NCBI GenBank assembly: GCA_036004365.1
Contig: DASYRN010000045.1
Coordinates: 7,637 to 71,636 of the forward strand
Direction of reading: 5' to 3'
DNA from: Candidatus Binatia bacterium
GTDB taxonomy: Bacteria > Desulfobacterota > Binatia > UBA9968
DNA length: 64,000 bases
The notes below the pieces were generated by a model. It was not told the origin of the DNA. It was given only the letters and a program-made list of their open reading frames with translations, and ran no database searches. The first letter of the stretch is position 1. Each line of letters opens with the position of its first letter. A program made the translations under genes and the position numbers. Positions 370-28,480 of this stretch are shown here, piece after piece.

Positions 370-504
370 CGTAGTCACTGGAATCCCGCACTCTAAAGAC
401 TAACCTTAGCGTTGAATAGCTTTCAGCAGTCAGCCATCCGCAAGACAGATAAGGCCGGAGAACGAAGCTGAATACTGAGTGCTGAAGGTTGTTATCCAAA
501 AATC

Positions 505-2787: not shown

Positions 2788-4086
2788 ATGGTACGTGGAA
2801 GGACCAAGGCCGAACCAGAGACTGTAGACGAGAACGGGCTCAATCTTAAGTCTCTTAAAGAAAAAAAGATCAGCGAGCTGGCATTGATTGGAAAGAACTT
2901 CAATATCGAGGGCGCAGCCAATATGCGCAAGCAGGAGCTCATCTTCGCCATATTGCAAGCTCAAACGGAGCAGAACGGGTACATTTACGGTGAGGGCGTG
3001 CTGGAGACGCTTCCTGACGGCTTTGGTTTCCTCAGGGCGCCGGACTATAACTATCTGCCCGGCCCCGACGATATTTACGTCTCTCCCAGCCAGATCCGGC
3101 GCTTCAATCTTCGCACGGGCGACATCATCTCAGGACATATCCGCCCTCCCAAAGAGGGCGAGCGTTACTTCGCCCTGCTCAAGGTGGAGTCCATCAATTA
3201 TGAGGATCCGGAAAAGGCGAGGGAAAAGATCCTCTTCGATAACCTCACTCCTCTTTATCCCAACCAACGGTTCCAGTTGGAATACCTGCCCGACGAATAT
3301 ACGACGCGGGTCGTCGATCTTATGACCCCGATCGGAAAAGGGCAAAGGGGGCTCATCGTCGCGGCCCCGCGCACGGGTAAGACCATGATGCTGCAGGCCA
3401 TCGCTAAGGCCGTGGCCCAGAACCATAAAGAGGTTATTTTGATCGTTCTTCTGATCGACGAGCGGCCAGAAGAGGTTACGGACATGCAGCGGTCTGTGGA
3501 TGGAGAGGTGGTGAGCTCCACGTTTGATGAGCCGGCCACGCGCCACGTGCAAGTCGCCGAGATGGTGATCGAGAAAGCCAAACGCTTAGTGGAGCATGGA
3601 AAGGACGTTGTCATCCTTCTCGATAGCATCACCCGGCTCGCACGGGCGTACAACACGGTTGTGCCGCCCAGCGGCAAGATTTTGTCCGGCGGCGTCGATT
3701 CCAATGCGCTTCACAAGCCGAAGAAATTTTTTGGGGCAGCGCGCAATATCGAGGACGGGGGAAGCCTGACGATTATTGCGACGGCGCTTATCGATACGGG
3801 AAGCCGCATGGACGAGGTGATCTTCGAGGAATTTAAAGGGACCGGTAATATGGAGATTCATCTGGACCGTCGGCTGATGGATAAGAGGGTTTTCCCGGCT
3901 ATTGACATCAACAAGTCGGGCACAAGAAAAGAAGAGCTTTTGATACCCAAGGAAGATTTGAATCGGATCTGGATCCTGCGCAAGGTATTGTCTCAACTCA
4001 GTGTGGTTGAGGCTATGGAATTTTTGCTGGATAAGATTCGTGGGACCAAAAACAACAAGGAATTTCTCGAATCCATGAATCAATAA
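2788..4086 (+). CDS. rho: transcription termination factor Rho
   Basis: 432 aa. Rho N-terminal and RNA-binding text, Walker A PRTGKT, and an RBS GAAAGGAGAGG upstream of the ATG. Confidence 0.95.
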
Positions 4087-4325
4087 ATGCCCCGTTCCCC
4101 CCTTATGACCGCCTTGCACAGGCTGCCGATCTTTGTTACAACCCCTAAATTGCCGAGTTGTTTGTATTGATTTCCAGATGCCCCTATTTTTCTGGCTCTG
4201 CGGGGGTAATCATCCTGGATAGAAAATTTCACACCCTTCCGGATCCCTTTCTAGGGTGCTCAGGTTTACGGGAATAGTTGGGAGTCGATGGAAGGGGAGG
4301 AGACCACAAAGGAGTAAACTTCTTT

Positions 4326-5117
4326 ATGACCGAGATCGCTATGAAGCAGCTCTTGGAAGCGGGCGTCCATTTTGGCCACCAGACGAGCCGCTGGAACCCG
4401 AAGATGAAGCCCTATATTTTCGGCGCGCGCAACGGAATCCATATTATCGACCTGCAGCAGACCGTTGCTATGTTCAAGGACGCCGCTGCCTTCCTTCGCG
4501 ACCTGGCGTCTTCGGGAGGGCATATCCTCTTCGTGGGGACCAAGAAGCAGGCGCAGGAGGCGATCAAGGAGGAGGCGCAAAGGTGCGGCATGTTTTATGT
4601 CCACAACCGTTGGCTAGGAGGAACGCTGACGAATTTTGCAACGATCCGGCAGAGTATTGAGAGGTTGAGAAAAATCGAAGAGATGGAGAATGATCCGAAG
4701 ATTGTCGAGGCCTTGACCAAAAAGGAGCTGCTGGGCCTCAAGCGTGAAAAGGAAAAGCTGGAGCAGTCTCTAGGCGGCATCAAAGGCATGAGGAAACTAC
4801 CCGAAGCGATCTTTGTGGTCGATCCCAAGCAGGAAGAGATCGCGGTTCGGGAGGCCAGGAAGCTCGGGATCCCCGTCGTCGCCGTCGTAGACACGAATTG
4901 TGATCCGGATATGGTCGATTACAAAGTTCCTGGAAATGATGACGCCATCCGGGCGATCCGGCTTTTCTGCGCCGCTTTCGCCGACGCGATTATCGAAGGG
5001 AAGACGATCTACGAGCAGTCCTTGGCCGGCAAGGAGAAGGAGGAGAAGGAATCCTCAGCGGCTCCTCAGGTGCACGAGACGGTCGAAAATTCAGCGGCGG
5101 GAGGGACCGCATTCTGA
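4326..5117 (+). CDS. rpsB: 30S ribosomal protein S2
   Basis: [20 protein letters not shown] prefer the ATG at 4326 (AAGGAG upstream) over the ORF-track start at 4278. Confidence 0.95.
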
Positions 5118-5726
5118 ATGGAAGTCAGCGCTTCTACAGTCAAAGAGTTGCGCGAGAAGACCGGCGCCGGGATGATGGATTGCAAGAAGGCCCTCGCGGA
5201 GTCCGGCGGCGATGTGGAAAAGGCGATCGATTATCTTCGACGCAAAGGGCTCGCGGCAGCGGCGAAGAAGATGAGCCGCGTAGCCGGAGAGGGGCTCGTG
5301 GGCGCCTATGTGCACCCTGGGGGTAAGATCGGCGTCTTGGTGGAGTTGAATTGCGAAACCGACTTTGTGGCTCGCACAGCGGAATTTCAAAACCTGCTCA
5401 AGGATATTGCGATGCAGATTGCCGCCGCCAACCCACGCTACGTGAAGCCGGAAGACGTCCCTCAAGCGGAACTGGAACGCGAGCGGGAGATCTATCGCCG
5501 ACAGGCGCTTGAATCGGGAAAGCCCGAGGAAGTCTTAGATAAAATCGTAGAAGGAAAGCTGGAGCGTTATTATTCCGAGATTTGCCTGCTGGAGCAAGCT
5601 TTTATCAAAGACCCGGATCGCAAAGTAGGAGATTTCATAAAAGACGCGGTGTTTAAGCTCAAGGAAAATATCCAAGTGCGGCGCTTCGCGCGTTACCATC
5701 TCGGGGAAGGCGTCGAAAAGCCTTAG
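5118..5726 (+). CDS. tsf: elongation factor Ts (short form)
   Basis: 202 aa. [19 protein letters not shown]. The ATG directly follows the rpsB stop. Confidence 0.9.
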
Positions 5727-5742
5727 GGTGCTTTAGGCCATT

Positions 5743-5825
5743 GCAAGCGCAAAGTGCAACAGTCAAAATTAAGAACTTTCGATCCTCGTTTTTGCATTTT
5801 TCAATTTGCATTCTTCATTTTGCCT
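5743..5825. repeat. 7-nt-period degenerate repeat arrays (TGCAAxx / xTTTGCA words) in inverted arrangement
   Basis: xCA recurs at 5795, 5802, 5809, 5816 and 5823. The left arm GCAAGCGCAAAGTGCAAC is the approximate reverse complement. Confidence 0.7.
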
Positions 5826-5840
5826 TGACCGCTTCGGTCT

Positions 5841-6566
5841 ATGGGAATGCTCAAGTATAAACGGATCATCCTGAAAGTTACGGGAGAAGTCCTCGCCGGG
5901 GGCGAGAGGTACGGCATCGACAACAATATGCTGAGCTCCTTCGCCCAGGAAATCAAAGAGGTGAAGGAGATGGGGAGCGAGATCGCCCTGGTGATGGGTG
6001 GAGGGAATATCTTTCGCGGCGCGGAGCTGAGCGAGGGAGGGATCGAGCGGGCGACCGCGGATTACATGGGAATGCTGGCCACGGTGATCAACAGCTTGGC
6101 GCTGCAGGATGCGTTGGAGAAAATCGGCGTTCCCACGCGGTGCATGTCTGCGATTGAGATGCGTCAGGTCGCGGAGCCGTATATCCGCCGGCGGGCCACG
6201 CGTCATTTGGAGAAGGGCAGGGTGGTCATTTTTGCCGGAGGCACCGGCAATCCTTATTTCACAACCGACACCACCGCAAGCCTGCGGGCGATGGAAATCG
6301 GAGCCGAGGTGATCCTTAAAGCCACGAAAGTGGAAGGAGTCTATGACGCGGATCCCCTGAAGCACCATAGCGCGAAAAAATACGGTGAGCTGACCTACAT
6401 CGAAGTGCTTAATAAAGAGCTTAAGGTCATGGACTCCACGGCGATCTCTCTTTGCATGGATAATCGGTTGCCCATCGTCGTCTTCAATATTATGGAGAAG
6501 GGGAACATCAAGCGAGTAGTGAGTGGAGAGGAGATCGGGACTCTCGTAAGCGCGGGAAGAAGATGA
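5841..6566 (+). CDS. pyrH: UMP kinase
   Basis: 241 aa. [14 protein letters not shown]...GGGNIFRG. Confidence 0.95.
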
Positions 6567-7120
6567 ACGAGCCCTTTTTTGCCGATCTGCAAAAAGAGAT
6601 GGAGAAGTCGATCGCGGCCTTTCGCAAGGACCTGGCGAAGATTCGAACCGGCCGCGCTTCGACGGCGCTGCTCGAAGGGGTCATGGTCGATTACTACGGG
6701 ACTTCGACTCCACTCAACCAGTTAGCCAACCTGTCCGCTCCCGAGCCGCGCCTGTTGGTCATCCAGCCCTACGATCGCGGGGCCATCGGCAATATCGAGA
6801 AAGCCATTCTTAAGTCTGACCTCGGCCTGACGCCGAATAACGATGGGAAGGTGATCCGGATTCCCATCCCGGAATTGACCGAGGAGAGGCGCAAAGAGCT
6901 GGCCAAACATGTGAAGAAGATCGCCGAAGAATTTCGCGTATCGGTGCGCAATCATCGAAGGCTTGCGGTCGAGAAACTCAAGGAGATGGAGAAGAAAAAA
7001 GAACTCACCGCGGACGACCTTAAACACAGTCAGGACCGAGTCCAGAAAATGACCGACGAATATATCCTCCGGGTCGATAAGGTGCTCAAGGCGAAAGAAG
7101 ACGAGATCATGGAGGTCTGA
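6563..7120 (+). CDS. frr: ribosome recycling factor
   Basis: 185 aa. [25 protein letters not shown] overlap with pyrH. Confidence 0.95.
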
Positions 7121-7157
7121 GCGATCCCACCCTCCCTGCAAAAATCCCGCCTGTAAA

Positions 7158-7934
7158 ATGGATCTGAGGGGCCTAGACAAGAGTCGACTGCCCAAGCATG
7201 TCGCCATTATCATGGATGGTAATGGACGCTGGGCCAAACTCAGAGGCAAAAGCCGTATCGAAGGCCATCGGCGAGGCAAGACTTCAGTTCGGGCCGTCGT
7301 AGAGATGAGCCGAAAATTGGGGATTGCTTACCTTTCTCTCTACGCGTTTTCCATTGAGAACTGGATGCGCCCCAAGGCGGAGGTCCACGCGTTGATGACC
7401 CTGCTCGAGCATTACCTTGTGACCGAGCAGGCAAGGATGAACCGGCTGGGAATCCGTCTCCTTTCTATTGGTAACCGAAAGTGGCTTCCGGCTTCCGTGC
7501 TGAGGACCCTCGATAAAACCGTGAGAGCGACCAGCAAGAATAAAAGGATGACCGTCGTCCTAGCGCTGAGTTACAGCGGCCGCGACGATATTGTGAGAAT
7601 GGTCAAGAGAGTAGCCGCAAAAGTCAAAGATGGAAGCTGCACCCTAGAAGAAATCGATGAACGGATGGTCTCCACTCACGTCGAGACTAGATTCATTCCC
7701 GACCCGGACCTCCTCATCCGGACCAGCGGCGAGATGCGAATCAGCAACTTCTTCCTCTGGCAGATCCCTTATACGGAACTTTACGTCACGCCGACCCTGT
7801 GGCCCGATTTTCGAGAGGCGGAATACCTTCAAGCTCTATTGGAATTTCAGAGGCGCCGCAGGAGATTCGGGCGGACCGACGAGCAGCTGACGCCGTCCGC
7901 TTCGGAGGCCGGTGAAGCCCAAGATCATTCCTAG
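7158..7934 (+). CDS. uppS: undecaprenyl (isoprenyl) diphosphate synthase
   Basis: 258 aa. HVAIIMDGNGRWA and LLIRTSGEMRISNFFLWQ. Confidence 0.9.
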   Translation: MDLRGLDKSRLPKHVAIIMDGNGRWAKLRGKSRIEGHRRGKTSVRAVVEMSRKLGIAYLSLYAFSIENWMRPKAEVHALMTLLEHYLVTEQARMNRLGIRLLSIGNRKWLPASVLRTLDKTVRATSKNKRMTVVLALSYSGRDDIVRMVKRVAAKVKDGSCTLEEIDERMVSTHVETRFIPDPDLLIRTSGEMRISNFFLWQIPYTELYVTPTLWPDFREAEYLQALLEFQRRRRRFGRTDEQLTPSASEAGEAQDHS

Positions 7935-8718
7935 AACGATCACCGCCCTGATCGGAATCCCCGTCCTGATCGCCATCATCAGCTGGGCGCGCCCGTGGCA
8001 GTTCGCCTTGGTGATTTTTCTCCTCACGCTAAAAGCCCTTCATGAATACTTTTCCCTCGTCTTTCCCGAGGACTGGGGGCACCGGGCGTTTGGCATCATC
8101 CTCGGCGCGCTCGTCTCTTGCGGAATAGTAATTCCTGCCTTCCGTGAAGCGAGTCTTGGGCTGGCGGGCTTGGTTGCCGTCATCTTCGCTGTTTATCTTT
8201 TTTCCGGTCCTAATTTGCGTGGCCGGTATCCGCGCCTCGGATGGACGCTTCTCGGAGCGCTCTACGTCGGTTATCTGATCCCGCATTTCAGCCTTCTCTA
8301 CAATTTACCTTCCGGAAGTGATTGGATTTTCTGGCTTCTTTCGGTCATCATGATCGGGGATAGCGCGGCTTATTTCATCGGCTCTTCGTTCGGGAAGAGG
8401 AAGCTTTCTCCGAGAATCAGTCCAGGTAAAACGGTTGAAGGCGCGTGGGCGTCGATGGCGGCAAGCCTTTGCGCGGGCGTTGTCGCAGGAATGTTTTTGC
8501 TGCCGCATTTGGCATGGCAAGAGTTGCTGTTGCTTGCGCTTGTTCTGAACGTCGTAGGGCAGGCAGGCGACCTCTTCGAGTCCTGGATCAAACGAAGCTT
8601 TTCCGTGAAGGACTCCGGGGCTATTCTTCCCGGCCACGGAGGGTTGCTCGATCGCATCGATAGTCTTATATTCCCGGTTGCTTTAACCACCTATTACATT
8701 AAGCTCTTTCACTCATGA
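7912..8718 (+). CDS. cdsA: phosphatidate cytidylyltransferase
   Basis: 268 aa multi-pass membrane protein with C-terminal signature SxxKRxxxxKDSGxxxPGHGGxLDRxDS. GTG start overlaps the uppS end. Confidence 0.85.
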   Translation: MKPKIIPRTITALIGIPVLIAIISWARPWQFALVIFLLTLKALHEYFSLVFPEDWGHRAFGIILGALVSCGIVIPAFREASLGLAGLVAVIFAVYLFSGPNLRGRYPRLGWTLLGALYVGYLIPHFSLLYNLPSGSDWIFWLLSVIMIGDSAAYFIGSSFGKRKLSPRISPGKTVEGAWASMAASLCAGVVAGMFLLPHLAWQELLLLALVLNVVGQAGDLFESWIKRSFSVKDSGAILPGHGGLLDRIDSLIFPVALTTYYIKLFHS

Positions 8719-9869
8719 AGTCCCTTGTCATTCTCGGTTCTACTGGCAGCATCGGGATAAACGCGCTCGATCTGGTGCGTCGTTTCCCTGACAAGTTTAG
8801 AGTGCGAGGCCTCGTCGCCGGCCGGAACCTAAAGCTCCTGGCGGCGCAGGCGCGCGAGTTTTCTCCAGACTGGATAAGTATCCGGGAGCAAGGCGAGGTC
8901 TCGCTCCTGAGTGAGCTTTTGCACAACCGAAAGGTTGAGATCCTATGGGGCGAGCAAGGGGCTATTTCCATTGCTAGGGCCGAGGGCGTTGACGTGGTCT
9001 TGGCGGCTATTGTCGGAGGCGCAGGTTTGGTGCCGACGTTGGAGGCGGTGCGCGCCGGGAAAGAGGTTGCGCTTGCGAATAAAGAAGCTCTGGTCATGGC
9101 GGGGGAAATTTTTGTCGCGGAAGCAAAAAAAAAAGGCGTGAGGCTCTTTCCCGTGGATAGCGAGCACAGCGCAATCTTCCAGTGCCTCCAGGGAAACCGG
9201 CGTGATGAGGTCGATCGAATCATTCTCACAGCCTCCGGCGGCCCTTTTCTCCGCGCTTCGTTGAAGAGTCTCAATCGGGTCAGCGTGAAGCAGGCCCTCA
9301 AACATCCGAATTGGAAAATGGGGCCCAAGATTACGGTCGATTCGGCCACGATGATGAACAAAGGTCTCGAGGTGGTTGAGGCCAGATGGTTATTTGATAT
9401 GATACCCACTCAGGTAGAGGTTGTAATTCATCCCGAGAGCATCATCCATTCCATGGTCCGATACCAGGACGGCTCGATCATCGCGCAATTGGGCATCCCC
9501 GACATGCGCATACCGATCGCCTATGCCCTTTCTTTTCCGCATCGACTCAAGGCGGGACTCAGGTCGCTTGAGTTGACCCGGCTCGGTAAGCTAACTTTTC
9601 TTCCGGTCGAAAAGAGGAGATATCCGGCTCTGGGTTTGGCTTACCGGGCTTTGGCTGTGGGAGGCACGATGCCCGCAGTTCTGAATGCCGCGAACGAGAT
9701 CGCGGTCGGCGCCTTCCTGGACAAACGGATCGGATTCCGGCAGATTCATCGGGTGATCGAGAAGACTATGGAGAGCCACACCACGCTCCGGCCAAAGGAG
9801 GTGGGCGAGATTCTCGAGGTGGATCGCTGGGCGAGGGAGAAAAGCCGGACTCTTGTCGAGAAGATCTAA
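8715..9869 (+). CDS. dxr: 1-deoxy-D-xylulose 5-phosphate reductoisomerase
   Basis: 384 aa. ILGSTGSIG, LANKEALV and NWKMGPKITVDSATMMNKGLE. Confidence 0.95.
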   Translation: MKSLVILGSTGSIGINALDLVRRFPDKFRVRGLVAGRNLKLLAAQAREFSPDWISIREQGEVSLLSELLHNRKVEILWGEQGAISIARAEGVDVVLAAIVGGAGLVPTLEAVRAGKEVALANKEALVMAGEIFVAEAKKKGVRLFPVDSEHSAIFQCLQGNRRDEVDRIILTASGGPFLRASLKSLNRVSVKQALKHPNWKMGPKITVDSATMMNKGLEVVEARWLFDMIPTQVEVVIHPESIIHSMVRYQDGSIIAQLGIPDMRIPIAYALSFPHRLKAGLRSLELTRLGKLTFLPVEKRRYPALGLAYRALAVGGTMPAVLNAANEIAVGAFLDKRIGFRQIHRVIEKTMESHTTLRPKEVGEILEVDRWAREKSRTLVEKI

Positions 9870-9881
9870 AGGAGAAAGCGA

Positions 9882-10952
9882 ATGTTAACCGTTGCTTATG
9901 CCATCGTTTCAGCCCTTATAGGGTTAGGGGTTTTGATCATTATTCACGAGTTGGGCCACTTCCTTGTGGCCAAAAAGCTCGGCGTGGGGGTTTTAACCTT
10001 TTCAGTCGGCTTTGGCCCCAAGCTCTTAAAGCGAAAGATCGGTGAAACCGAATACGCCTTGAGCGCCTTCCCCCTTGGAGGATACGTCAAAATGATTGGA
10101 GAGGATCCGGAGGAAGAGGTTAGCCAGGCGGATATCGAGCGATCTTTTTCCCACCAGGGAGTCGGAAAGCGCGCGGCGATCGTTGCCGCGGGTCCGCTGT
10201 TTAACCTGCTGCTCGCTGTCGTACTCTTCGGCGCCATCTTCATGTTCTACGGGGTCCCGCTCCTGACAACCCGAATCGCCGGCGTTGAGCCGGGTTCTCC
10301 AGCCGCGAAGGCGGGGATACAAAAGGGTGACCGCGTCGTTGCCGTAGACGGCGACGCGATAAGAGAATGGGAGGAGCTTTCGGCTCGGATCAAGCAAAGT
10401 CAGGGCAAACCTTTACAGCTAACGGTTCAAAGAGCGGATCAGGAGATCACCGTCACGGTTCAGCCGACCATGAGAGAGGGAAAAAACATCTTCGGAGAAA
10501 CAATAGACACCTGGGTCATTGGAATCGCCAGCGAGGTCTCGATGGAAAAAAGCAACCCTTTGTTGGCGATCGGAAATGGATTTTACAAGACCGGAGAATA
10601 TTCGGTTCTCACCCTGCTCGGCCTTGTGAAGATGATCAGAGGGGATGTGTCGCCGAAAAATCTCGGCGGTCCTCTTTTGATCGCCCAGATGGCTGGCCAG
10701 CAGGCGCAAGAGGGGCTGGCAAGTTTTTTATTTTTCGTCGCGATACTGAGTGTCAATCTTGGAGTATTGAATCTCCTGCCGATTCCCGTTCTTGACGGCG
10801 GCCATCTGCTTTTTTTCCTGATCGAGTCGCTCTTGGGCCGGCCGGTTGAGGTAAAACATCGGGAGAGGGCGCAGCAGATCGGAATTTTTGTTCTGATCCT
10901 CATCATGGTTTATGCCTTCTATAACGATATCTCCAGGTTATTCGAAGGATAA
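9882..10952 (+). CDS. rseP: RIP metalloprotease RseP (site-2 protease, single PDZ)
   Basis: 356 aa. HELGHF zinc motif in TM1, a PDZ segment, and C-terminal NLLPIPVLDGGH. Confidence 0.9.
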   Translation: MLTVAYAIVSALIGLGVLIIIHELGHFLVAKKLGVGVLTFSVGFGPKLLKRKIGETEYALSAFPLGGYVKMIGEDPEEEVSQADIERSFSHQGVGKRAAIVAAGPLFNLLLAVVLFGAIFMFYGVPLLTTRIAGVEPGSPAAKAGIQKGDRVVAVDGDAIREWEELSARIKQSQGKPLQLTVQRADQEITVTVQPTMREGKNIFGETIDTWVIGIASEVSMEKSNPLLAIGNGFYKTGEYSVLTLLGLVKMIRGDVSPKNLGGPLLIAQMAGQQAQEGLASFLFFVAILSVNLGVLNLLPIPVLDGGHLLFFLIESLLGRPVEVKHRERAQQIGIFVLILIMVYAFYNDISRLFEG

Positions 10953-10960
10953 TCTAGTAA

Positions 10961-11040
10961 GTCAGTTTCGAGTTTTGGATGCTTAATTCTTAGTTGTGTT
11001 AATCCTCAGCAACTCAAAACTTAAAACTCAAAACTAGAAA
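10961..11040. repeat. 7-nt-period degenerate arrays (xxGAGTT / CTCAAAA words) forming an imperfect inverted pair
   Basis: CT at 11013, 11020, 11027 and 11034 (CTCAAAA CTTAAAA CTCAAAA CTAGAAA). The left arm GTCAGTT TCGAGTT TTGGATG CTTAATT CTTAGTT is in opposite polarity. Confidence 0.8.
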
Positions 11041-11043
11041 TTC

Positions 11044-11778
11044 ATGGCGATTCTCGGCATCGACACTTCCACTGCCATCGCCAGCGTGGCCTTGGTGGAA
11101 ATGGGGAAGGTGGTCTGCGAGGAGATTCAGCAAGCTGGAAGTAAAACTAACGGCACGAGTCATGCCAACCATGCGGAGACTCTGTTGCCGTTAATTGATG
11201 GCATTCTCAAAAAGGCCTCTCTCCCCTTATCGGAGCTTTCCGCTATCGCACTCTCGATCGGTCCGGGATCTTTCACCGGTCTTCGGATCGGGTTGAGCAC
11301 CGTGAAAGGGCTCGCCTACGGCTCGAATATCTCGGTCGTTGGCATCTCCACATTGCTTGCGACGGCGGCGCGGGCAAAGGGCTGGGACGGCTTGGCGTGT
11401 CCTTTCCTCGATGCGCGAAAAAAAGAGGTCTATGCCGCGCTGTTCAGAAAGAAGGGTGAGAGCTTGGAGCGCCTGACCGAAGATCTCGTCGCTCCGCACC
11501 GAAAGATAGTCGAACTCGTTCTGTCCCGCGCCAACCAGGAGCGCTGCCTTTTCATCGGAGATGGGACTAAAACCTATGGTGACGTTCTTACCATGGCTCT
11601 CGGGGAAAAGTGTGTTTTGACCCTGGGCGAAGATTATCCCTCGACCGCTTCAGCAGTAGCCCGCTTGGCGGAAGAAAGATTGCGCGGCGAGCCATCCGAC
11701 CCGGTTGGTCCTTTGAGTCCGCTTTACCTTCGTCCTTCGGAGGCTGAGCTTAAACGGTTGAAGCAGGATGCGCAGTAG
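11044..11778 (+). CDS. tsaB: tRNA t6A biosynthesis protein TsaB (YeaZ)
   Basis: 244 aa. ILGIDTSTAIASVAL...GPGSFTGLRIG. Confidence 0.85.
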   Translation: MAILGIDTSTAIASVALVEMGKVVCEEIQQAGSKTNGTSHANHAETLLPLIDGILKKASLPLSELSAIALSIGPGSFTGLRIGLSTVKGLAYGSNISVVGISTLLATAARAKGWDGLACPFLDARKKEVYAALFRKKGESLERLTEDLVAPHRKIVELVLSRANQERCLFIGDGTKTYGDVLTMALGEKCVLTLGEDYPSTASAVARLAEERLRGEPSDPVGPLSPLYLRPSEAELKRLKQDAQ

Positions 11779-11907
11779 CTCGATCGCTCCACTCGGGATT
11801 TGGTCAATTGAAAAAAAATTGTTCTCAGGTCGGTCACGTTGACAAAAAAAAGGGCGTAGGATAAGTTAGCGATTTATGAAATAAAAAAACAAAATGAGGA
11901 GGCTCTC

Positions 11908-12153
11908 ATGGAGCAGCGAGAGGAAGAGCTGATCGTCTCTCTTTTGGACAAGGATGCGGAGCTGAAGAAATATTATGAAGAGCATCAGGAACTAGAGAAA
12001 AAGCTCTCGCTTTATCAGCATAAACCTCATCTGAGCGCGATGGAAGAAGTAGAGAAGAAAAGGCTTCAGAAACTCAAGCTTTTAGGAAAAGACAAAATCA
12101 TGGAAATTTTGGAGAGATACCGGCATGGACGAGCCCAAGGAGAAGCGAAATGA
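11908..12153 (+). CDS. DUF465/YdcH-like small coiled-coil protein
   Basis: 81 aa. HQELEKKL...LQKLKLLGKDKIMEIL. RBS AGGAGG. ATGA overlap with ilvB. Confidence 0.6.
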   Translation: MEQREEELIVSLLDKDAELKKYYEEHQELEKKLSLYQHKPHLSAMEEVEKKRLQKLKLLGKDKIMEILERYRHGRAQGEAK

Positions 12154-13928
12154 AAAAAACCGGCGCTGAGATATTTGTTGAGTCGCTCAAGCAGGAAGGT
12201 GTCAAAGTCGTCTTCGGCATCCCCGGAGGAGTCGTTTTAAAAATCTTTGATGTGTTGCACCAACAAAAGGACGTTGAAGTTATCCTGACCCGGCATGAAC
12301 AGGGTGCCGCCCATATGGCCGAGGGGTATGCGAAGGCGACAGGAAAGGCAGGAGTCGCGCTGGTGACTTCCGGCCCGGGAATGACCAACATCGTGACCGG
12401 TCTGACCGATGCTTTCATGGATTCAGTGCCTCTGGTTGCTTTTACCGGCCAGGTCTCGACTAGCTTGATCGGCAACGACGCCTTTCAGGAAGCGGACAAC
12501 GTGGGGATCAGCCGTCCCTGTACAAAGCACAACGTCTTGGTCAAAGACGTGAATGATCTGGCGCGCACCATCAAAGAAGCGTTTTACATCGCCACGACCG
12601 GGCGGCCCGGACCGGTGTTGGTCGATATTCCAAAAGATGTCAGCACCGAGAAGGCGGAATTCAAGTATCCGGACAAAGTGAGCCTGCGCGGTTACAATCC
12701 GACCTACGAGGGAAACAGATATCAGATTCGGCAGGCAGCCGAAGAGATCATGAACGCCAAGAAGCCGGTGATCTATGTCGGAGGCGGGGCGCTCTTTTCC
12801 GACGCAGCCGATGAGATCCTGGAATTGGCGGACATGACGCAAATTCCGGTCACGATGACGCTTATGGGCTTGGGAAGCTTTCCGGGAACTCACGCGCTTT
12901 CCATGGGAATGCTAGGCATGCACGGCGGTTACTGGACCAACATGGCGATGCATCAGGCCGATTTGCTCATCGCCGTTGGGGCGCGGTTTGATGACCGCGT
13001 CACCGGGAAGCTGTCCGATTTTTGCCCTGAGGCTAAGGTCATCCATATCGATATCGACCCGACTTCGATCAAGAAGAATGTCTTTACCCACATCCCCATC
13101 GTCGGGGATGTGAAGGCGGTGCTGCGGCAGCTCAATATCGTTCTGCGGTCGTTGGACGGCAATCAGGCTGAGCTCAAGGAAAGGCGGCGCCCCTGGCACA
13201 AGCAGATCGAGGAGTGGAAACGGGCCCACCCGCTGCGCTATCACCAGGACACCAAGATCACCAAGCCGCAGTACGTCATCGAGAAGCTCTACGAGATCAC
13301 CCGACACGATGCGATCGTCGCCACGGACGTCGGCCAACATCAGATGTGGGCCGCGCAGTATTTCAAGGGAACCAAGCCGCGGACCTTTCTCACCTCAGGC
13401 GGTCTGGGGACGATGGGATTCGGCTTCCCGGCCGCGCTCGGCGCGCAGAAGGCATACCCGGACAGGCTGGTGCTCTGCATCACGAGCGAGGGCAGCTTCC
13501 AGATGAATCTTCAGGAGCTGGCCACCGCGCAGGAACATAAGCTTCCGGTCAAGATCGTTTTGCTCAATAACGGATTTCACGGGATGGTGCGCCAATGGCA
13601 GGATCTCTTCTACGAAGGCCGTTATGCCGCCAGCTATCTTGGAAAACTCCCGGACTTCGTCAAGCTCGCCGACGCCTATGGCATCCGCGGCCTGCGCGCG
13701 GAGAAACCTTCCGAGGTCGAGTCGGTCATCCGGGAGGGGCTGAAGCACAAAGGCCCTGTGCTGATGGATTTTCAGGTTGACCCGTACGAAAACTGCTACC
13801 CGATGATCCCGGCGGGTGGCGCCCACCATGAGATGGTTCTCGAAGATCCACCCGAACTCAAGACCGCACGAAAGGGCGGAGTAGCAAAAAAGAAGGTTGA
13901 GGAGGGGGAAGGCGTTCTGCCCGCCTAG
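12150..13928 (+). CDS. ilvB: acetolactate synthase large (catalytic) subunit
   Basis: 592 aa. ThDP-enzyme text GIPGGVVLKIFD and GLGTMGFGFPAALGAQ. Confidence 0.95.
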   Translation: MKKTGAEIFVESLKQEGVKVVFGIPGGVVLKIFDVLHQQKDVEVILTRHEQGAAHMAEGYAKATGKAGVALVTSGPGMTNIVTGLTDAFMDSVPLVAFTGQVSTSLIGNDAFQEADNVGISRPCTKHNVLVKDVNDLARTIKEAFYIATTGRPGPVLVDIPKDVSTEKAEFKYPDKVSLRGYNPTYEGNRYQIRQAAEEIMNAKKPVIYVGGGALFSDAADEILELADMTQIPVTMTLMGLGSFPGTHALSMGMLGMHGGYWTNMAMHQADLLIAVGARFDDRVTGKLSDFCPEAKVIHIDIDPTSIKKNVFTHIPIVGDVKAVLRQLNIVLRSLDGNQAELKERRRPWHKQIEEWKRAHPLRYHQDTKITKPQYVIEKLYEITRHDAIVATDVGQHQMWAAQYFKGTKPRTFLTSGGLGTMGFGFPAALGAQKAYPDRLVLCITSEGSFQMNLQELATAQEHKLPVKIVLLNNGFHGMVRQWQDLFYEGRYAASYLGKLPDFVKLADAYGIRGLRAEKPSEVESVIREGLKHKGPVLMDFQVDPYENCYPMIPAGGAHHEMVLEDPPELKTARKGGVAKKKVEEGEGVLPA

Positions 13929-13935
13929 ACTACAA

Positions 13936-13998
13936 GTTTCGGGTTCCGAGTCCCGAGTTTCGAGTCAAACCCGAAACGCGGAGCCAGAAACTCGACAC
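13936..13998. repeat. 7-nt-period degenerate array (GTTTCGG GTTCCGA GTCCCGA GTTTCGA GTCAAAC CCGAAAC ...) containing self-complementary halves
   Basis: GT at 13936, 13943, 13950, 13957 and 13964. xAAAC units end at 13970, 13977, 13991 and 13998. GTTTCGGGTT and AACCCGAAAC are complementary. Confidence 0.8.
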
Positions 13999-14012
13999 TG
14001 ATCTTTGGTTGC

Positions 14013-14531
14013 ATGGAACATATCATTTCGATTCTCGTTGAGAATAAGTTCGGGGTATTGGCTCGCGTCGCGGGCCTGTTCAGCGCACGGGGCTACAACA
14101 TCGAAAGCCTCTCGGTTGCTCCGACGCTCGATCCGACGACTTCCATGATTACGATCGTGACGCAGGGGGAGGATCGGATCATCGAGCAGATCATCAAGCA
14201 GCTCAACAAGGTCATCGAGGTTCTCAAAGTGACCGACCTTACCGAGACGAGTTTTCTCGACCGCGAGACCGCTCTGATCAAGATCAACACCAAACCGGAG
14301 CACCGCGAGGAGGCGATCCGCATCGCGGAGATCTTTCGGGCGAAAATCGTCGACTCCTCGCCTATGACCTACACGATCGAGGTCACCGGCGACGTGGACA
14401 AGGTGGAGGCGCTCATCAATATGCTGCGCCCGCTCGGGATCAAAGAGCTCGTGCGCACAGGGCGCATCGCGATTGCTCGCGAAGGCGCGAAAGTATCCGT
14501 ACGCCGCGAAGCCCAGGCCGTGAAAGCCTGA
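14013..14531 (+). CDS. ilvN: acetolactate synthase small (regulatory) subunit
   Basis: 172 aa. ACT-domain start HIISILVENKFGVLARVAGLFSARGYNIESL. Confidence 0.9.
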   Translation: MEHIISILVENKFGVLARVAGLFSARGYNIESLSVAPTLDPTTSMITIVTQGEDRIIEQIIKQLNKVIEVLKVTDLTETSFLDRETALIKINTKPEHREEAIRIAEIFRAKIVDSSPMTYTIEVTGDVDKVEALINMLRPLGIKELVRTGRIAIAREGAKVSVRREAQAVKA

Positions 14532-14545
14532 AATTTTTTCACCCA

Positions 14546-14585
14546 CTTTCCGTTTTCATCTTTCCGTTTTTATCCTTTATCCGTT
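14546..14585. repeat. 7-nt-period array, pyrimidine-strand version of the GGATGAA family (CTTTCCG TTTTCAT CTTTCCG TTTTTAT CCTTTAT)
   Basis: Read directly. It shares a 12-nt core TTCATCTTTCCG with the reverse complement of 15729-15765. Confidence 0.75.
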
Positions 14586-14623
14586 CTTCTTGCCTTGCCG
14601 TAAAGAATCGGCATACTGGCGGT

Positions 14624-15727
14624 ATGTTGAAGACTAGGATAAGAATTTTTCTCGCGCTTCTTACCGGACTGGTTCTGAGCAGCGTGCCGGCATCATCCGC
14701 GACGACCCAACCGAATGTTGAAGTTGTCGCCGAGGGATTAGAAACTCCCTGGGCGATCGCCTTCGCGCCCGACAGGCGCATCTTCATCACCGAGCGGCCG
14801 GGACGCATCCGGGTGATCAAAGACGGTAAATTGCAGAAAGAGCCGTGGATGGAGATCGAGATCTACGAGGCTGGTGAGGCGGGGCTTATGGGGCTCGCTC
14901 TGGACCCGCAATTTGAGCGCAATCGGTTTGTCTATGTCGCCTATACCCATCGCGACAGCGCCGGTCGGATGAGAAATCACCTGGCGAGGCTGCGGGAGGA
15001 TCAAGGCAAGGGCGTCATGGATAAGGTCTTAGTCGACGGAGCGAGAGGAGCCAGAAATCACGACGGCGCGCGGGTCAAGTTCGGTCCCGATGGGAAACTT
15101 TACTTGACGATGGGCGATGCCCAGGACGCGGACACAGCACAAAACCTATCTTCCTTGAACGGCAAAATACTCAGGATGAACCCGGACGGGACAATTCCCT
15201 CGGATAATCCCTTCAAAAATTCTCCGGTCTATTCTTATGGCCATAGAAACCCGCAGGGACTCGCCTGGCAGCCTGGGACCGGAAGGCTTTACGCGACCGA
15301 GCACGGTCCGAGCGGCTTTCAGGGATGCTGTCGCGATGAGCTGAATTTTATCGAGCCGGGAAAGAATTACGGTTGGCCGGTCATACGCGGCGACCAAACC
15401 CGCGAGGGGATGGTGCCGCCGATTCTCCACAGCGGAACGAACGAGACATGGGCTCCCTGCGGGGCGACCTTTGTGACGCGCGGGCCGTGGGCTGGATCGC
15501 TTGTATTTACCGGCCTGCGCGGACAGACCCTTTACCGCGTGATCTTGGACAAAGACGATCCGCGCAAAGTCGCCGGATTCGAACGGGACTTTGCACGTGA
15601 GTTCGGACGGCTGCGTGACGTAGTCGAGGGACCGGACGGCGCGCTCTATGTTCTCACCAGCAACCGCGACGGCCGCGGCAGCCCGGCGTCGAACGACGAC
15701 CGCGTGTTGCGGCTCACTCTTAAGTAA
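14624..15727 (+). CDS. PQQ-dependent soluble sugar (aldose/sorbosone) dehydrogenase-like beta-propeller, secreted
   Basis: 367 aa with a signal-like N-terminus. PWAIAFAPDRRIFITERPGRIR, GLMGLALDP and YSYGHRNPQGLAW are typical of the YliI/GSDH family. Confidence 0.8.
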   Translation: MLKTRIRIFLALLTGLVLSSVPASSATTQPNVEVVAEGLETPWAIAFAPDRRIFITERPGRIRVIKDGKLQKEPWMEIEIYEAGEAGLMGLALDPQFERNRFVYVAYTHRDSAGRMRNHLARLREDQGKGVMDKVLVDGARGARNHDGARVKFGPDGKLYLTMGDAQDADTAQNLSSLNGKILRMNPDGTIPSDNPFKNSPVYSYGHRNPQGLAWQPGTGRLYATEHGPSGFQGCCRDELNFIEPGKNYGWPVIRGDQTREGMVPPILHSGTNETWAPCGATFVTRGPWAGSLVFTGLRGQTLYRVILDKDDPRKVAGFERDFAREFGRLRDVVEGPDGALYVLTSNRDGRGSPASNDDRVLRLTLK

Positions 15728-15728
15728 C

Positions 15729-15765
15729 AGGATGAAAGCGGAAATCGGAAAGATGAAATGAAAGG
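15729..15765. repeat. 7-nt-period array, purine-strand GGATGAA family (AGGATGA AAGCGGA AATCGGA AAGATGA AATGAAA)
   Basis: Read directly. It is the inverted partner of 14546-14585. Confidence 0.75.
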
Positions 15766-15990
15766 AATTGATTGCCTTGCGCCCTATCGACTCGCGCCTA
15801 TTCCATTTTTTGCTTTGCTAAAAAACTCAAAATCGTAGTAAAATTATCTTGTTTTCTCTACCTTTCCACACAATGCCGTGAAAGCCTTCGCAGAGGTTCA
15901 AGAAGAGACAGATAGGTGAAAGCCGCGTGCGACGTTGCGGCCCGAAATCCTACCTGTCATCAGGCGGGAATCGAAGAGGAGAAAATTTCC

Positions 15991-16611
15991 ATGGAAAGTC
16001 AGGATAAGTCTCCGGCAAAGGTCTATCCAGGTGGTTCAGCGGCTGAAAGTTTCGTTAATAGAGTTTTTGAGATCGTTAAGATAACCATCAAGGAAATTCC
16101 TCCGAGTGATCAGATCAAGCATTCTAACCCGGAGCTTCATGCCCGTGTATTGACAAAAGCAGCTGCTTTGAAGGCCGCCGCAGTATCAGGCACCTTGGCG
16201 CTCCCGCCCGGACCTTGGGGGCTTATGACCGTCTTGCCGGATCTGATCGAAATCTGGCGGCTGCAGGCTCGGCTCGTCTCCGATATAGCGGCCGTGTACG
16301 GAGAGAGAGCCAGCCTGACCCACGAAACATTGCTGTACTGCCTGTTTCGCCACGCCGTGGCTCAAGTCATCAGGGATTTGGTTACGCGCGTGGGCGAGAG
16401 AATCGTGGTCCAACGCGCCTCCTGGCGGCTGAGCCAGAGAATTCTACACAGGGTCGGTATGGAAATTACCCGGCGCGTCACCGGCAGGAGCGTCTCGCGT
16501 CTTCTTCCACTGATCGGAGCTTTAGGCGTCGCCGGGTACGCGTATTACGACACCGCGCAGGTCGGACAAACGGCCATCGAGTTTTTCAGCAGAGAAATTG
16601 AGCTTAAATAA
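15991..16611 (+). CDS. EcsC-like family protein (tentative)
   Basis: The ATG at 15991 is preceded by GAGGAG. Text PPGPWGLMTVLPDLIEIWRLQARLVSDIAAVYG resembles EcsC proteins as I recall them. Confidence 0.5.
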   Translation: MESQDKSPAKVYPGGSAAESFVNRVFEIVKITIKEIPPSDQIKHSNPELHARVLTKAAALKAAAVSGTLALPPGPWGLMTVLPDLIEIWRLQARLVSDIAAVYGERASLTHETLLYCLFRHAVAQVIRDLVTRVGERIVVQRASWRLSQRILHRVGMEITRRVTGRSVSRLLPLIGALGVAGYAYYDTAQVGQTAIEFFSREIELK

Positions 16612-16722
16612 CTAAGCACTTATCACAACTAACGAACACGATCACAAATCACGATCCGCCTTTTGCTCTTTCGATTCTATCCTTTATCCTTCATCCTTTA
16701 TTCTTTTTCTTGGAGGTAACCC

Positions 16723-17166
16723 GTGTATTACTTTGCCTACGGCTCGAACATGAACTGGGCGCAGATGAAGCAACGCTGCTCGTCGGCCAGGTTCGTGTCG
16801 GTGGCATGCCTGAAGGACCGCCGCTTTGCAATCACGCGACGATCGCGCCGGCGCCTGTGCGGGACGGCGGATGTCCTTCCTGAACCCGGCAGCGAGGTCT
16901 TGGGAGTCGTCTACGAGATCGATGATTGTGATCTCGGCCTACTCGATGGCTTCGAAGATGGCTACGGCAGAGAAAAGATGTTCGTGGATCCTATCGGCGA
17001 CGGCGGCCGTCGGCTGGAGGCGTGGGTTTATATCGCTGAGAAAGAAACGTATCCCCCGCTTCCCAACGCGCTCTACAAACGGCTCATCGTCGAGGGCGCG
17101 AGGCACTGGAAGCTGCCGGAAGCGTACATCGATATGCTGGAGAAAATCGAGATAGCAATCGAGTAA
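16723..17166 (+). CDS. gamma-glutamylcyclotransferase (AIG2/GGACT-like) family protein
   Basis: 147 aa. The N-terminal YYFAYGSNMN motif is typical of the family. GTG start with RBS GGAGG. Confidence 0.75.
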   Translation: MYYFAYGSNMNWAQMKQRCSSARFVSVACLKDRRFAITRRSRRRLCGTADVLPEPGSEVLGVVYEIDDCDLGLLDGFEDGYGREKMFVDPIGDGGRRLEAWVYIAEKETYPPLPNALYKRLIVEGARHWKLPEAYIDMLEKIEIAIE

Positions 17167-17257
17167 AGAGTAGCGAGTAACGAGGAAAGAGTTTAGAGTA
17201 GGAGTTCAGTCCTGTTTGTTACCTCATTACTCAATACTTGCTCCTTGCCCCTTTTGT

Positions 17258-17893: not shown

Positions 17894-18122
17894 GCCCTCC
17901 TTCAAGCAGCCTGCCTTATCCTTCATCCTTTATCTCTTATCTTTTTTTGCCACGAACACGTATCACGAACACGTTTTTTTCCGTTTTCCGCTTTCATCTT
18001 TCATAATTCCACATTCTCCTTGACCGTTCCTATATGTTAGTCGCCGATCCGGCGCAAGGCATGCTTCCTGCTCCCGGTCTGCCTTGACAGTCGCAGGGTT
18101 TTGGCTTAGACCGGCCCGAAGG

Positions 18123-20058: not shown

Positions 20059-20155
20059 TCAGAAAGGATGAGGGCGAAAGGATAAGGGATGAAAGTAAGT
20101 TAAAATCGAAAAGCGTGTCGGTTGTAAAGCTGGGAACGGTAAAGACACGACTAAC

Positions 20156-26666: not shown

Positions 26667-27091
26667 ATACCGGATCGAAACGGGAGCAGCGGGATCGTCC
26701 TCCAGGACGTAGAAAAGCGCCCGGCCGACGTGGTACTCCCCCCACTTAACTCCGGAGTATCGACACTTCCCACAGCTCGGCGAGAGCCGGATCGACCTGC
26801 ACCTTTACCCTTCGCTCTGGCGGAAGCTGGTAGCGCTGGTCGAAGAGGACCGTTTGGCCTCAGGCGCCAAGCCCGAGCGAAAGGAAAAACAAAGTGAAAA
26901 GGGAGGTCTTGCTCATGAGACGATCTGCAATTTCTTAGCATCTCTCCTAAAAGAGTAAAAGCCCCCGCAAGATAAAGGATGAAGGATAAGGGAAAGATGC
27001 TCATAAGACAGCGGACTTTCGGGGCCGTTCAAAGAATTTTGCTGGTGGCCACATCGAAGCTGTGCTATGTTGGTATGAAATTTTGAGAGCG

Positions 27092-27793: not shown

Positions 27794-27952
27794 GCAGGCC
27801 GATCTAAGAAAGGTACAAAGGCCCGTGCTCGTGATCGTGAAACGTCATCGTGACTAAAGACAAGGATGAAGTATAAGGGATGGAAGCAGAAAAAGAAGTG
27901 GACGTGATCGCGACTCGTGTGCGTGGAAACTTAGCAGACGCCTTGTGTGAGA

Positions 27953-28348: not shown

Positions 28349-28409
28349 AGCCTCCCAATTATAGTCGCGAGAGAAGGTCGCCGCAATTCAGTGAGCGGCA
28401 CGGACAAGA

Positions 28410-28480
28410 GATGAGGGATGAATGATAAAAGATAACGGATGAAGGATCGAAGCGGAAAGAGGAAAAGAGAAAGAGAAAAA
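28410..28480. repeat. ten consecutive degenerate heptads (GATGAGG GATGAAT GATAAAA GATAACG GATGAAG GATCGAA GCGGAAA GAGGAAA ...)
   Basis: GAT at 28410, 28417, 28424, 28431, 28438 and 28445. G continues at 28452, 28459 and 28473. Confidence 0.9.

Follow-up and report, generated by a model that had tools for sequence, protein, structure and literature searches.

Inverted arrays of degenerate heptanucleotide repeats in intergenic spacers of a Candidatus Binatia bacterium and its relatives

The DNA analysed here (the window) is a stretch of 64,000 nucleotides from contig DASYRN010000045.1 (positions 7,637 to 71,636; assembly GCA_036004365.1) of an uncultured soil bacterium, a Candidatus Binatia. 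Its first part encodes housekeeping functions, among them cpoB/ybgF, ribF, rho, tsf, pyrH, rseP, tsaB, ilvB and ilvN (Table 1), and ORF (open reading frame) annotation confirmed the gene names given in a first-pass annotation made from the sequence alone. The gene that follows ilvN is not ilvC, which was considered and ruled out, its product being a GSDH-family dehydrogenase. At several junctions between these genes, an array of degenerate 7-nt units (heptads) faces its own reverse complement, and these inverted arrays are the subject of this report. The nearest public relatives of the organism are uncultured 'Candidatus Binatia' and 'Deltaproteobacteria bacterium' metagenome-assembled genomes with an RseP identity of at most 79%; positions 3882-16952 of the window are also matched at 99.94-100% identity by five public metagenome contigs encoding an identical RseP. 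For comparison, 160 loci around rseP were retrieved from genomes and metagenomes (labelled L001-L127 etc.). The best match of a metagenome scan for relatives nearer to the window was still at 79% RseP identity, so that the micro-evolutionary series for the window's own hairpin is confined to L085 and L087.

Period 7 is the sole outstanding repeat period of the window that is not a multiple of 3. Indeed, when 28-nt segments with at least 20 self-matches were counted at each lag, the other lags serving as an internal control, period 7 gave 7 clusters, periods 12 and 14 gave one each and periods 4-6, 8-11 and 13 gave none. The autocorrelation of intergenic DNA in the first 20 kb peaks at lags 7 (0.335), 14 (0.306) and 21 (0.293) over a baseline of ~0.26-0.27; coding DNA displays a 3-nt periodicity only, the lag-7 peak being restricted to intergenic DNA, and 13 of the 15 arrays found under lenient criteria lie in intergenic spacers. 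Tandem Repeats Finder (TRF) reported repeats of period 7 or its multiples at 5791-5823 (period 14), 11011-11035, 14546-14574 (period 14), 15734-15752, 16678-16706, 17160-17192 (also period 21), 17977-17995 and 28410-28452, plus others. With head-to-tail 7-nt units beyond chance and a mostly intergenic location, these arrays belong to the heptanucleotide long simple sequence repeats (LSSRs). No match to Rfam 15 at gathering score was obtained over all 64 kb, the sole match at E up to 1 over 1-20 kb being an unrelated chance snoRNA match, and a tRNA/tmRNA scan of the window found none.

An array faces its own reverse complement at rseP-tsaB, cpoB-ribF and ilvB-ilvN and at the convergent junction 17160-17257. 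The first-pass annotation had described a 7-nt period and a layout of array and reverse complement common to five junctions, and both are borne out by the sequence, by TRF and by the lag counts. At rseP-tsaB, the CT dinucleotides that it placed within 10961-11040 do occur at 11013, 11020, 11027 and 11034; TRF resolves 11011-11035 into 3.6 copies of period 7 with 88% matches, the left arm holds just ~2 units (AGTTTCG AGTTTTG) and 5 nt (AATTC) separate the 3' arm from the tsaB ATG at 11044. This hairpin has a z-score of -2.8 to -3.7 against dinucleotide shuffles, the measure of stability used for all hairpins; the value of -3.7 goes with a minimum free energy (MFE) of -20.7 kcal/mol and 1 of 200 shuffles equally stable. 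Its word family is also found at rseP-tsaB in L085 and L087. At cpoB-ribF (400-500), the units GCTGAAT ACTGAGT GCTGAAG were correctly described as facing the reverse complement of TGAATAGCTTTCAGCAGTCAGCC; the fold has a z-score of -1.84 (8 of 200 shuffles as stable) and the word recurs at the same junction in L005. The words given for 13936-13998 (ilvB-ilvN) and 17167-17250 are likewise present. The ilvB-ilvN arms form 20 of 26 Watson-Crick pairs (z = -1.7), and L085 and L087 carry heptad hairpins with other words at this junction. At tsf-pyrH (5743-5825), the CA said to recur every 7 nt from 5795 to 5823 is found at 5795, 5802, 5809 and 5816, position 5823 reading CC, and the right array (5791-5823) truly has period 14; TTGCAAA-type arrays also occupy tsf-pyrH in L009 and L005, that of L009 being a strong inverted pair. 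Finally, the hairpin at 17160-17257 (4.7 copies of period 7, also period 21, according to TRF; z = -2.05 for the + and -2.76 for the - strand) lies between a GGACT-family gene (+) and a DUF5666 gene (-). These two genes are convergent, and the description of the five sites as operon junctions thus holds for four of them and not for 17167-17257.

Table 1. Genes, heptad arrays and hairpins of the window, and word families at the rseP-tsaB junction of the window and its relatives
Feature	Position or locus	Strand	Remarks
cpoB/ybgF	79-369
cpoB-ribF hairpin	415-493	+	5' arm 415-433 (NNTCAGC units); 3' arm 475-493 (GCTGANN units)
ribF	505-1461
RluD-like pseudouridine synthase	1473-2447
rho	2788-4086
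tsf	5118-5726
tsf-pyrH arrays	5743-5825	+	left TGCAAnn units; right TTTGCAn/TTTTCAA units
pyrH	5841-6566
rseP	9882-10952
rseP-tsaB hairpin	10953-11043	+	entire spacer is one imperfect hairpin; 5' arm 10953-10978 (AGTTTNG units); 3' arm 11013-11038 (NAAAACT units)
tsaB	11044-11778
ilvB	12150-13928
ilvB-ilvN hairpin	13935-13992	+	arms 13935-13960 (GTTTCGG/GTTCCGA/GTCCCGA/GTTTCGA) and 13967-13992
ilvN	14013-14531
Pyrimidine-rich array (CTTTCCG TTTTCAT ... TATCCTT)	14546-14600	+	5' of GSDH gene; no local partner
GSDH-family dehydrogenase	14624-15727		directly after ilvN
Purine-rich array (GGATGAA AGCGGAA ATCGGAA AGATGAA)	15729-15761	+	reverse complement of TTTCCG/TTTCAT family
TATCCTT/CATCCTT array	16671-16713	+	directly 5' of GGAGG ribosome-binding site of GGACT-family gene; no inverted partner
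Convergent-junction hairpin	17160-17257	.	arms 17169-17188 and 17219-17238; fills spacer between two stop codons
Two pyrimidine-rich arrays	17911-18019	+	CCTTATC-type 17911-17949; TTTCCG/TTTCAT-type 17973-18019
TATCCTT-type array copy	28402-28452	-	pyrimidine-rich on - strand; 5' of - strand SH3-domain gene
NNTCAGC/GCTGANN family	rseP-tsaB of L001/L081, L003, L005, L127
NNAGGC(R)/(Y)GCCTNN family	rseP-tsaB of L004, L007/L094, L009, L011, L053
AGTTTTN/NAAAACT family	rseP-tsaB of window, L085, L087		AATTNT/AAAATTN variant in L088
GGAATTN family	rseP-tsaB of L040

Within an arm, about five positions of the unit are invariant and two, usually adjacent, are variable. In 21 arms picked by eye, 67 of the 80 non-consensus cells fall in the two most variable phases, as compared with 55.2 +/- 2.4 under the null, and 0 of 5000 permutations reached 67. 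Since the variable positions of both arms face each other, the stem is made of ~5-bp helices parted by 1x1 or 2x2 internal loops, and these loops indeed recur every 7 nt (at 8, 15, 22 and 29 in L001; 8, 15 and 21 in L003; 8, 15 and 22 in L011). In a set of 20 heptad spacers from four junction types, the hairpin spans a median of 89% of the spacer, and the unpaired flanks have medians of 5 nt behind the stop codon and of 4 nt ahead of the start codon. The comparison of folds with dinucleotide shuffles that the first-pass annotation had proposed as a check favours structure, with z-scores of -2 or lower in 12 of these 20 spacers. Mismatch counts depend on how the arms are aligned: MFE structures contain 23 G.T and 14 A.C, whereas Watson-Crick-only alignments of the coding strand contain 15 A.C and 2 G.T (~28 and 13 in a wider set), all in small samples. 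The two kinds of count conflict, and MFE folding favours G.U pairs. A role of the heptads as a source of stops in each of the three reading frames was also considered and rejected, as it would suit the GCTGA words (TGA) and not the AGGC/GCCT or TTCGR words.

Besides the window, 17 relatives (18 loci) have a heptad hairpin at rseP-tsaB, and the words used there belong to four to five families. In the subclade whose RseP ends in FEG at the stop codon, the rseP-tsaB spacer is 60-98 nt long, always consists of array, loop and reverse-complement array from stop codon to ATG, and folds each time as a single long imperfect hairpin. In all other Binatia, rseP and tsaB overlap by ATGA. The same architecture was found at ilvB-ilvN in two relatives (L085, L087), at cpoB-ribF in one (L005) and at tsf-pyrH in two (L005, L009), so that the survey of relatives recovers it at all four orthologous junctions.

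Several further arrays were noticed in the retrieved loci. In brief, the loop of the TCAGC/GCTGA hairpin of L005 at cpoB-ribF (362-434) holds AGGC-type units (TATAGGCACAAGGCG), one word family thus being nested within another. Two Binatia that do not belong to the FEG subclade also carry inverted heptads, GATCGAG/GATGGAA opposite CCTCCAT/CTCGATC, seemingly at the same position in both (L032, 20812-20888; L054, 20855-20922). AAAACTC/AAACTCG arrays, with the same core as the window's rseP-tsaB word, are present in Thermodesulfovibrionia, a different phylum (L076, 2846-2890 and 4072-4121; L074, 2134-2195), and an L076 array apparently lies within an RluD-like reading frame, judged by reading the sequence. 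Long single arrays, namely 117 nt of CCCTCAT/CACTCAT/CACCCGT units in Desulfacinum (L077, 2534-2650) and ~7 copies of CACGATT/TACGATT in Desulfosoma (L080, 16144-16211), indicate that heptanucleotide arrays are widespread in neighbouring lineages.

A survey of 1073 orthologous junctions yielded 25 spacers of at least 45 nt with a lag-7 identity of at least 0.38. A Shine-Dalgarno (SD) motif is found in 0 of the 22 hairpin spacers (rseP-tsaB, cpoB-ribF, tsf-pyrH and ilvB-ilvN), as compared with 60 of 62 and 58 of 68 at dxr-rseP; the remaining 3 of the 25, which carry the motif, are weakly folding arrays 5' of the dxr-rseP ribosome-binding site in L003-L005. Strong SD sites occur at many genes of the organism, such as AAGGAG at dxr-rseP, GAGGAGG between tsaB and the next gene and AAGGAGAGG at rho. 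In genomes devoid of the hairpin, the same junctions are tight and motif-free, with a median distance of -4 nt at rseP-tsaB (114 loci) and of 12 nt at ilvB-ilvN, where the motif is found in 0 of 83 loci. The absence of SD motifs, together with the tightness of these junctions in hairpin-free genomes, suggests that the hairpins sit where the downstream gene presumably needs translational coupling. The arrays at SD-bearing junctions (16671-16713 in the window; dxr-rseP in L003-L005) are not hairpins, which fits this view.

A structural role had been suggested by the first-pass annotation, with a terminator, an insulator or an RNA stem as options, and it is plausible insofar as the hairpin persists while its sequence is replaced. 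The terminator option fares badly. Many rseP-tsaB hairpins are indeed followed by a short pyrimidine tail (CTTTCT, CTTTTTCCT, CTTCTTT), as intrinsic terminators or attenuators between genes might be; these tails, however, are 4-8 nt of mixed C and T running straight into the ATG, the stems are long, mismatched and often AT-rich, and the junctions lie inside conserved operons. Furthermore, no heptad hairpin is among the 26 terminator-like sites that a scan found, a number at chance level (24.4 expected). That the elements terminate or attenuate transcription is thus extremely unlikely.

The stems begin a median of 5 nt after the stop codon, where the footprint of a ribosome in termination would end. 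E. coli REP (repetitive extragenic palindromic) elements stabilise upstream mRNA and, within ~15 nt of a stop codon, lower the translation of the upstream gene. The hairpins could accordingly play another role in RNA, as translational insulators ('ribosome termination structures'), REP-like stabilisers of 3' ends or processing sites that would decouple or tune the genes: in most cases the stem starts 0-6 nt after the stop codon, where structures that block re-initiation have been reported (bioRxiv 10.1101/2020.02.10.941153), and the convergent hairpin 17160-17257 would suit a 3'-end protector. This alternative nonetheless appears unlikely, as the start codon of a downstream gene without an SD site abuts the stem and de novo initiation there would be poor. 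In addition, the products of ilvB and ilvN are the two subunits of a single enzyme, which requires that ilvN, 3' of the hairpin, be translated along with ilvB, and owing to their periodic mismatches the stems would be poorly suited to enzymes whose targets are long perfect duplexes.

The words are replaced between close relatives while the hairpin is kept. The rseP genes of L004 and L005 are 94.3% identical and the flanks align up to TAG and from ATG, yet their rseP-tsaB spacers (60 nt of AGGCA/TGCCT and 77 nt of TCAGC/GCTGA, respectively) are non-homologous. Among L007, L009 and L011 (rseP ~97% identical), the AGGC register is kept and the variable positions, the loop and the length differ; in L011 three stem pairs have changed from GC to AU on both arms, and L009 shows A.C intermediates. 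At tsf-pyrH, a TTTGCAA hairpin of 124 nt is present in L009, the spacer of L007 and L011 being short and including an AAGGA ribosome-binding site, and L005 has 108 nt where L004 has essentially none. When aligned, filled and empty sites differ by clean indels located between stop codon and start region. Word families are patchy on the RseP tree, the window (AAACT) being sister to L001 (TCAGC) and L004 (AGGC) to L005 (TCAGC). Furthermore, TCAGC/GCTGA is used at three junction types, namely cpoB-ribF (window, L005), rseP-tsaB (L001, L003, L005, L127) and ilvB-ilvN (L085), and its copies at different junctions share sequence beyond the core, e.g. TCAGCGGTCAGC and GCTGAGCGCT(GAT). Within the window, three non-identical units make up a 22-nt block (CCTTATCCTTCATCCTTTATCT, 17914-17935) that has a perfect reverse complement at 26970-26991, 9 kb away, other multi-unit blocks matching at 92-95%. 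From the different words, the first-pass annotation had suggested that no mobile copy-paste element was involved; this is not supported in view of the three junction types of TCAGC, the patchy RseP tree, the L004/L005 replacement and the 22-nt blocks. Its view that each spacer has a word of its own applies to the five junctions it had chosen; other arrays of the window share words and relatives reuse the window's words elsewhere. A private word per junction is therefore contradicted, as words are shared across junctions, are incongruent with the tree and recur as identical blocks. Judged from sequence, the shared words, the tree incongruence and the 22-nt blocks point to copying or conversion between loci alongside local change, the latter visible as period-14 and period-21 super-units.

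The same data bear on whether the arrays are selfish or neutral DNA, i.e. REPIN- or MITE-like (miniature inverted-repeat transposable element) copies or by-products of 7-nt slippage and fold-back template switching, with no function in RNA. The hairpin form would then reflect how the elements are made or moved, as single-stranded DNA hairpins, and not selection on mRNA. In this case one would expect word families that cut across junctions and genomes and disagree with the RseP tree, as well as wholesale replacement at 94% rseP identity, presence or absence at ~97%, identical multi-unit blocks 9 kb apart and a hairpin between convergent genes; the A.C mismatches that prevail on the coding strand are G.T pairs when the opposite strand is read, and heptanucleotide repeats have been hypothesised to arise by polymerase slippage (Mrazek 2007, as relayed in PMC4679880 and PMC4692102). 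In contrast, the comparison of filled and empty sites gave no convincing target-site duplication, the only flanking direct repeat being a 4-nt TAGT in L005, no transposase was found among the 30 annotated ORFs of the window, and non-orthologous hairpin copies have the word in common and neither loop nor terminal sequence. The change of both arms in L011, the fixed unit phases of the variable positions and the occurrence of hairpins exclusively at coupled junctions without SD sites argue for constraint over neutrality. A selfish or neutral origin of this kind is a real possibility, which we regard as rather improbable.

Besides the hairpins, the window contains pyrimidine-rich arrays of the same kind that share words over long distances. 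The TATCCTT-type word is found at 14566, 16673 and 17914 and, reverse-complemented, at 26969, 27862 and 28408; the TTTCCG/TTTCAT-type word is found at 14547 and 17976 and, reverse-complemented, at 15730 and 25949. The array at 15729-15761 is 95% complementary to 17978-17998, and that at 16671-16713 is 92% complementary to 26972-26997. The region 17911-18019 is a divergent intergenic region in which a CACGAACACGT direct repeat parts the two arrays. The orientation of the pyrimidine-rich arrays with the downstream genes (14546, 16671 and 17911-18019; 26966 and 28402 on the - strand) raises the question of binding sites for a single-strand reader, of the cold-shock-domain or S1 type, that proceeds in 7-nt steps and whose footprint would set the period; CspB of B. 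subtilis binds heptamer repeats, one protein per heptamer (PMC4679880). On the other hand, the hairpins carry a word and its complement on the same strand, and their words are so diverse (TCAGC, AGGC, AAACT, GGAATT, TTCGR, GAGTA) that a sequence-specific reader is unlikely; as an explanation of the heptads in general, such a reader is very doubtful.

Some observations on these dispersed arrays are added here. The TATCCTT/CATCCTT family (14566-14597, 16673-16711 and 17914-17944; reverse complements at 20067-20089, 26969-26997, 27862-27885 and 28408-28447) mostly has its pyrimidines on the same strand as the downstream gene, whose start is at most ~150 nt away. Its CCUUC units are complementary to the GGAGG ribosome-binding site and could, for this reason, serve as anti-SD decoys or as S1-binding leaders. 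The GSDH gene is flanked by reverse-complementary arrays (29 nt, 79% complementary, 1147 nt apart), the partner of the 5' array lying at 15730-15758; a cassette-like insertion or pairing over a long range could account for this. The direct repeat CACGAACACGT-ATCACGAACACGT adjoins pyrimidine-rich heptad arrays in at least two intergenic regions, with copies at 17951-17974 and, reverse-complemented, at 28588-28611 (92% complementary), and a related CGAACACGATCACAAATCACGATCC (similar stretch at 16633-16660) lies 5' of the GGACT-family gene; from its sequence, this repeat looks like a common operator or promoter module of a small gene set.

The reading that we favour, with moderate confidence, is that the elements are REP-like palindromes of heptanucleotide repeats, which slippage and copying, from arm to arm and from locus to locus, would remodel and of which those that leave coupled junctions working would be kept; confidence is higher for what the elements are than for what they do. 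They would form a lineage-specific population of small intergenic palindromes built of degenerate heptanucleotide tandem repeats, each made of 3-5 seven-base units, a short loop and the reverse-complement array, and the transcript or single-stranded DNA could form a stem of 45-95 nt made up of ~5-bp helices with 1x1 or 2x2 mismatches between them. Their change in 7-nt steps would be consistent with replication slippage, as the period-14 and period-21 super-units suggest, and copying between arms and between loci would explain both the shared word families and the wholesale replacement at a fixed site. We infer slippage and conversion as the generators. As to placement, the elements occupy the whole spacer, from stop to start, at junctions whose downstream gene lacks an SD site, where the hairpin form alone may be tolerated or selected. 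Termination-reinitiation coupling is lost beyond a linear distance of ~20 nt (PMC10666635). In the folded RNA, stop and start codons would lie at the stem base, ~5-15 nt from each other, and such coupling could thereby survive, while a ribosome at the stop codon would melt the stem base and free the region just 5' of the ATG; folding may also keep a long untranslated stretch structured within the operon.

Several points weigh against this favoured reading. Coupling at the RNA level as the reason why the hairpins are retained is something that we infer purely from sequence, and stable structures right after stop codons have been reported to insulate against re-initiation (bioRxiv 10.1101/2020.02.10.941153). 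Coupling has no bearing on the hairpin 17160-17257, whose neighbouring genes are convergent, and arrays of the same kind form no hairpin at 14546, 16671 and 17911. At tsf-pyrH in the window, the facing arrays are present and fold no better than shuffles (z -0.2 to -0.4), as is also the case for the spacers of L088 and L127. On the coding strand, the prevalence of A.C over G.T gives no sign of the G.U tolerance expected of a selected + strand RNA helix and, at most, speaks against simple selection of this kind on the sense RNA. The five near-identical contigs, which come from different samples, differ from the window by 8 single-nucleotide polymorphisms, all outside the arrays, and by no unit-number indels; slippage is thus not fast at that time scale, and these contigs give no evidence of strain-level hypervariability of the arrays. 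Finally, the related sequence examined amounts to ~1.9 Mb in total.

A bolder version of the favoured reading is conceivable, in which these spacers would be 'zippers', a functional class that replaces ATGA overlaps or ~12-nt gaps and whose folding lets termination-reinitiation span 60-100 nt. The period of a 5-bp helix and a 2-nt mismatch would be selected to be ribosome-meltable and to contain no long perfect duplex, and the sequence would be rewritten by a dedicated, sequence-independent process in a 7-nt register (slippage and arm-to-arm templating), which would explain wholesale word swaps under a constant architecture. We consider this version speculative and its chance of being correct small.

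Heptanucleotide repeats are known from other bacteria. In a 2007 survey (Mrazek et al., as relayed in PMC4679880 and PMC4692102), units of 7 nt were the most frequent among the long simple repeats of most genomes; an association with polymerase slippage was suggested. In Xanthomonas, ~185 (GGGANTN)n arrays are present, 70-75 of them as convergent inverted pairs, and their gene context is mostly kept between species while length and sequence vary (Rehm et al. 2015, PMC4692102). The arrays described here resemble these (GGGAATC)n/(GGGANTN)n repeats in being degenerate heptamer arrays of ~4 units, intergenic and mostly between co-oriented genes (PMC4692102), with conserved and variable unit positions and inverted pairs able to form stem-loops, and in having no explained function; the L040 word (GGAATTG/GGGAATT) is close to GGGAATC. 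In Xanthomonas, however, a single G-rich word, investigated for its ability to form G-quadruplexes, is used throughout the genome, whereas at least six unrelated words, most of them incapable of forming G-quadruplexes, are found here: by the criterion used for Xanthomonas and Nostoc (at least 4 units with a tract of three or more G), the window words do not qualify, as they are devoid of GGG, and only L040 has GGGAATT-like units. Xanthomonas also belongs to another phylum, and its repeats have not been described as filling the spacer exactly from stop to start, as swapping words at one site or as being linked to junctions that lack SD sites.

Closer in genomic position are the short tandemly repeated repetitive (STRR) heptamers of cyanobacteria, which form a hairpin between hupS and hupL for which transcript stability or translational coupling has been proposed (PMC2670836); as at ilvB-ilvN, 7-bp tandem repeats thus form a hairpin between two genes of the same operon that encode subunits of one enzyme. 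STRRs have specific words and occur in filamentous cyanobacteria, unlike the other words found here in a Binatia-type bacterium with a Tol-Pal cpoB. None of the window words (TCAGC, AAACT, TTGCA and others) is known as an STRR word. Word turnover at orthologous sites and the 5+2 mismatch geometry are seen here, and neither is reported for STRRs in the part of PMC2670836 consulted. In Beggiatoaceae, TAACTGA arrays lie just 5' of start codons, where ribosome-binding sites are rare (PMC4679880), and the heptad hairpin junctions similarly lack SD sites; the Mrazek LSSRs and the Beggiatoaceae repeats are direct repeats, with a single inverted case reported in Beggiatoaceae, whereas array plus reverse complement is the defining feature here. 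Finally, as in REPs, bacterial interspersed mosaic elements and REPINs (PMC3116915 for REPINs), short imperfect palindromes in extragenic, presumably transcribed DNA are found in operons and between convergent genes, in seemingly dispersed families (one word occurring at three junction types and in several genomes), with long bulged hairpins and rapid turnover between strains. They differ from REPs and REPINs in having no GTAG-type head and in having arms of tandem 7-mers rather than a unique ~20-nt sequence, and no RAYT (Y1) transposase was found among the 30 annotated ORFs of the window. New here are the phylum, the coexistence of several word families, the exact stop-to-start occupancy of ancestrally overlapping junctions without SD sites, the 5+2 mismatch geometry and the wholesale replacement of words at a fixed site between near-identical genomes.

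Two features of the window outside the heptad junctions are also recorded. The 340-nt leader 5' of rho (2448-2787) contains blocks conserved among relatives that are otherwise ~70% identical (e.g. CCCACRC-TAAGGT-ATCA-TCAC; TTTGATTTGGATTTCGA; GAAAGGAGA before the ATG) and is probably a rho autoregulatory leader; it has no Rfam match. At the head of the ilv operon, an 81-aa ORF (11908-12153) that matches no Pfam family shares an ATGA overlap with the start of ilvB and is conserved at 71-87% identity, and a conserved TTGACA promoter-like box precedes it in L002, L004 and L005.

The heptanucleotide has been recognised as a favoured length of bacterial intergenic repeats since the STRR work and the 2007 survey, and why it is 7 and what role such repeats play have remained unsettled. 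The Binatia subclade constitutes an informative natural experiment in this respect, as the same junctions of essential operons are hairpin-filled, short or overlapping across relatives, with word swaps at fixed sites, compensatory changes at ~97% rseP identity and a clean association with the absence of SD sites. The findings yield testable alternatives, namely a coupling device, an insulator and a selfish palindrome. If the coupling reading were true, it would qualify the rule that termination-reinitiation needs overlaps or very short linear distances.

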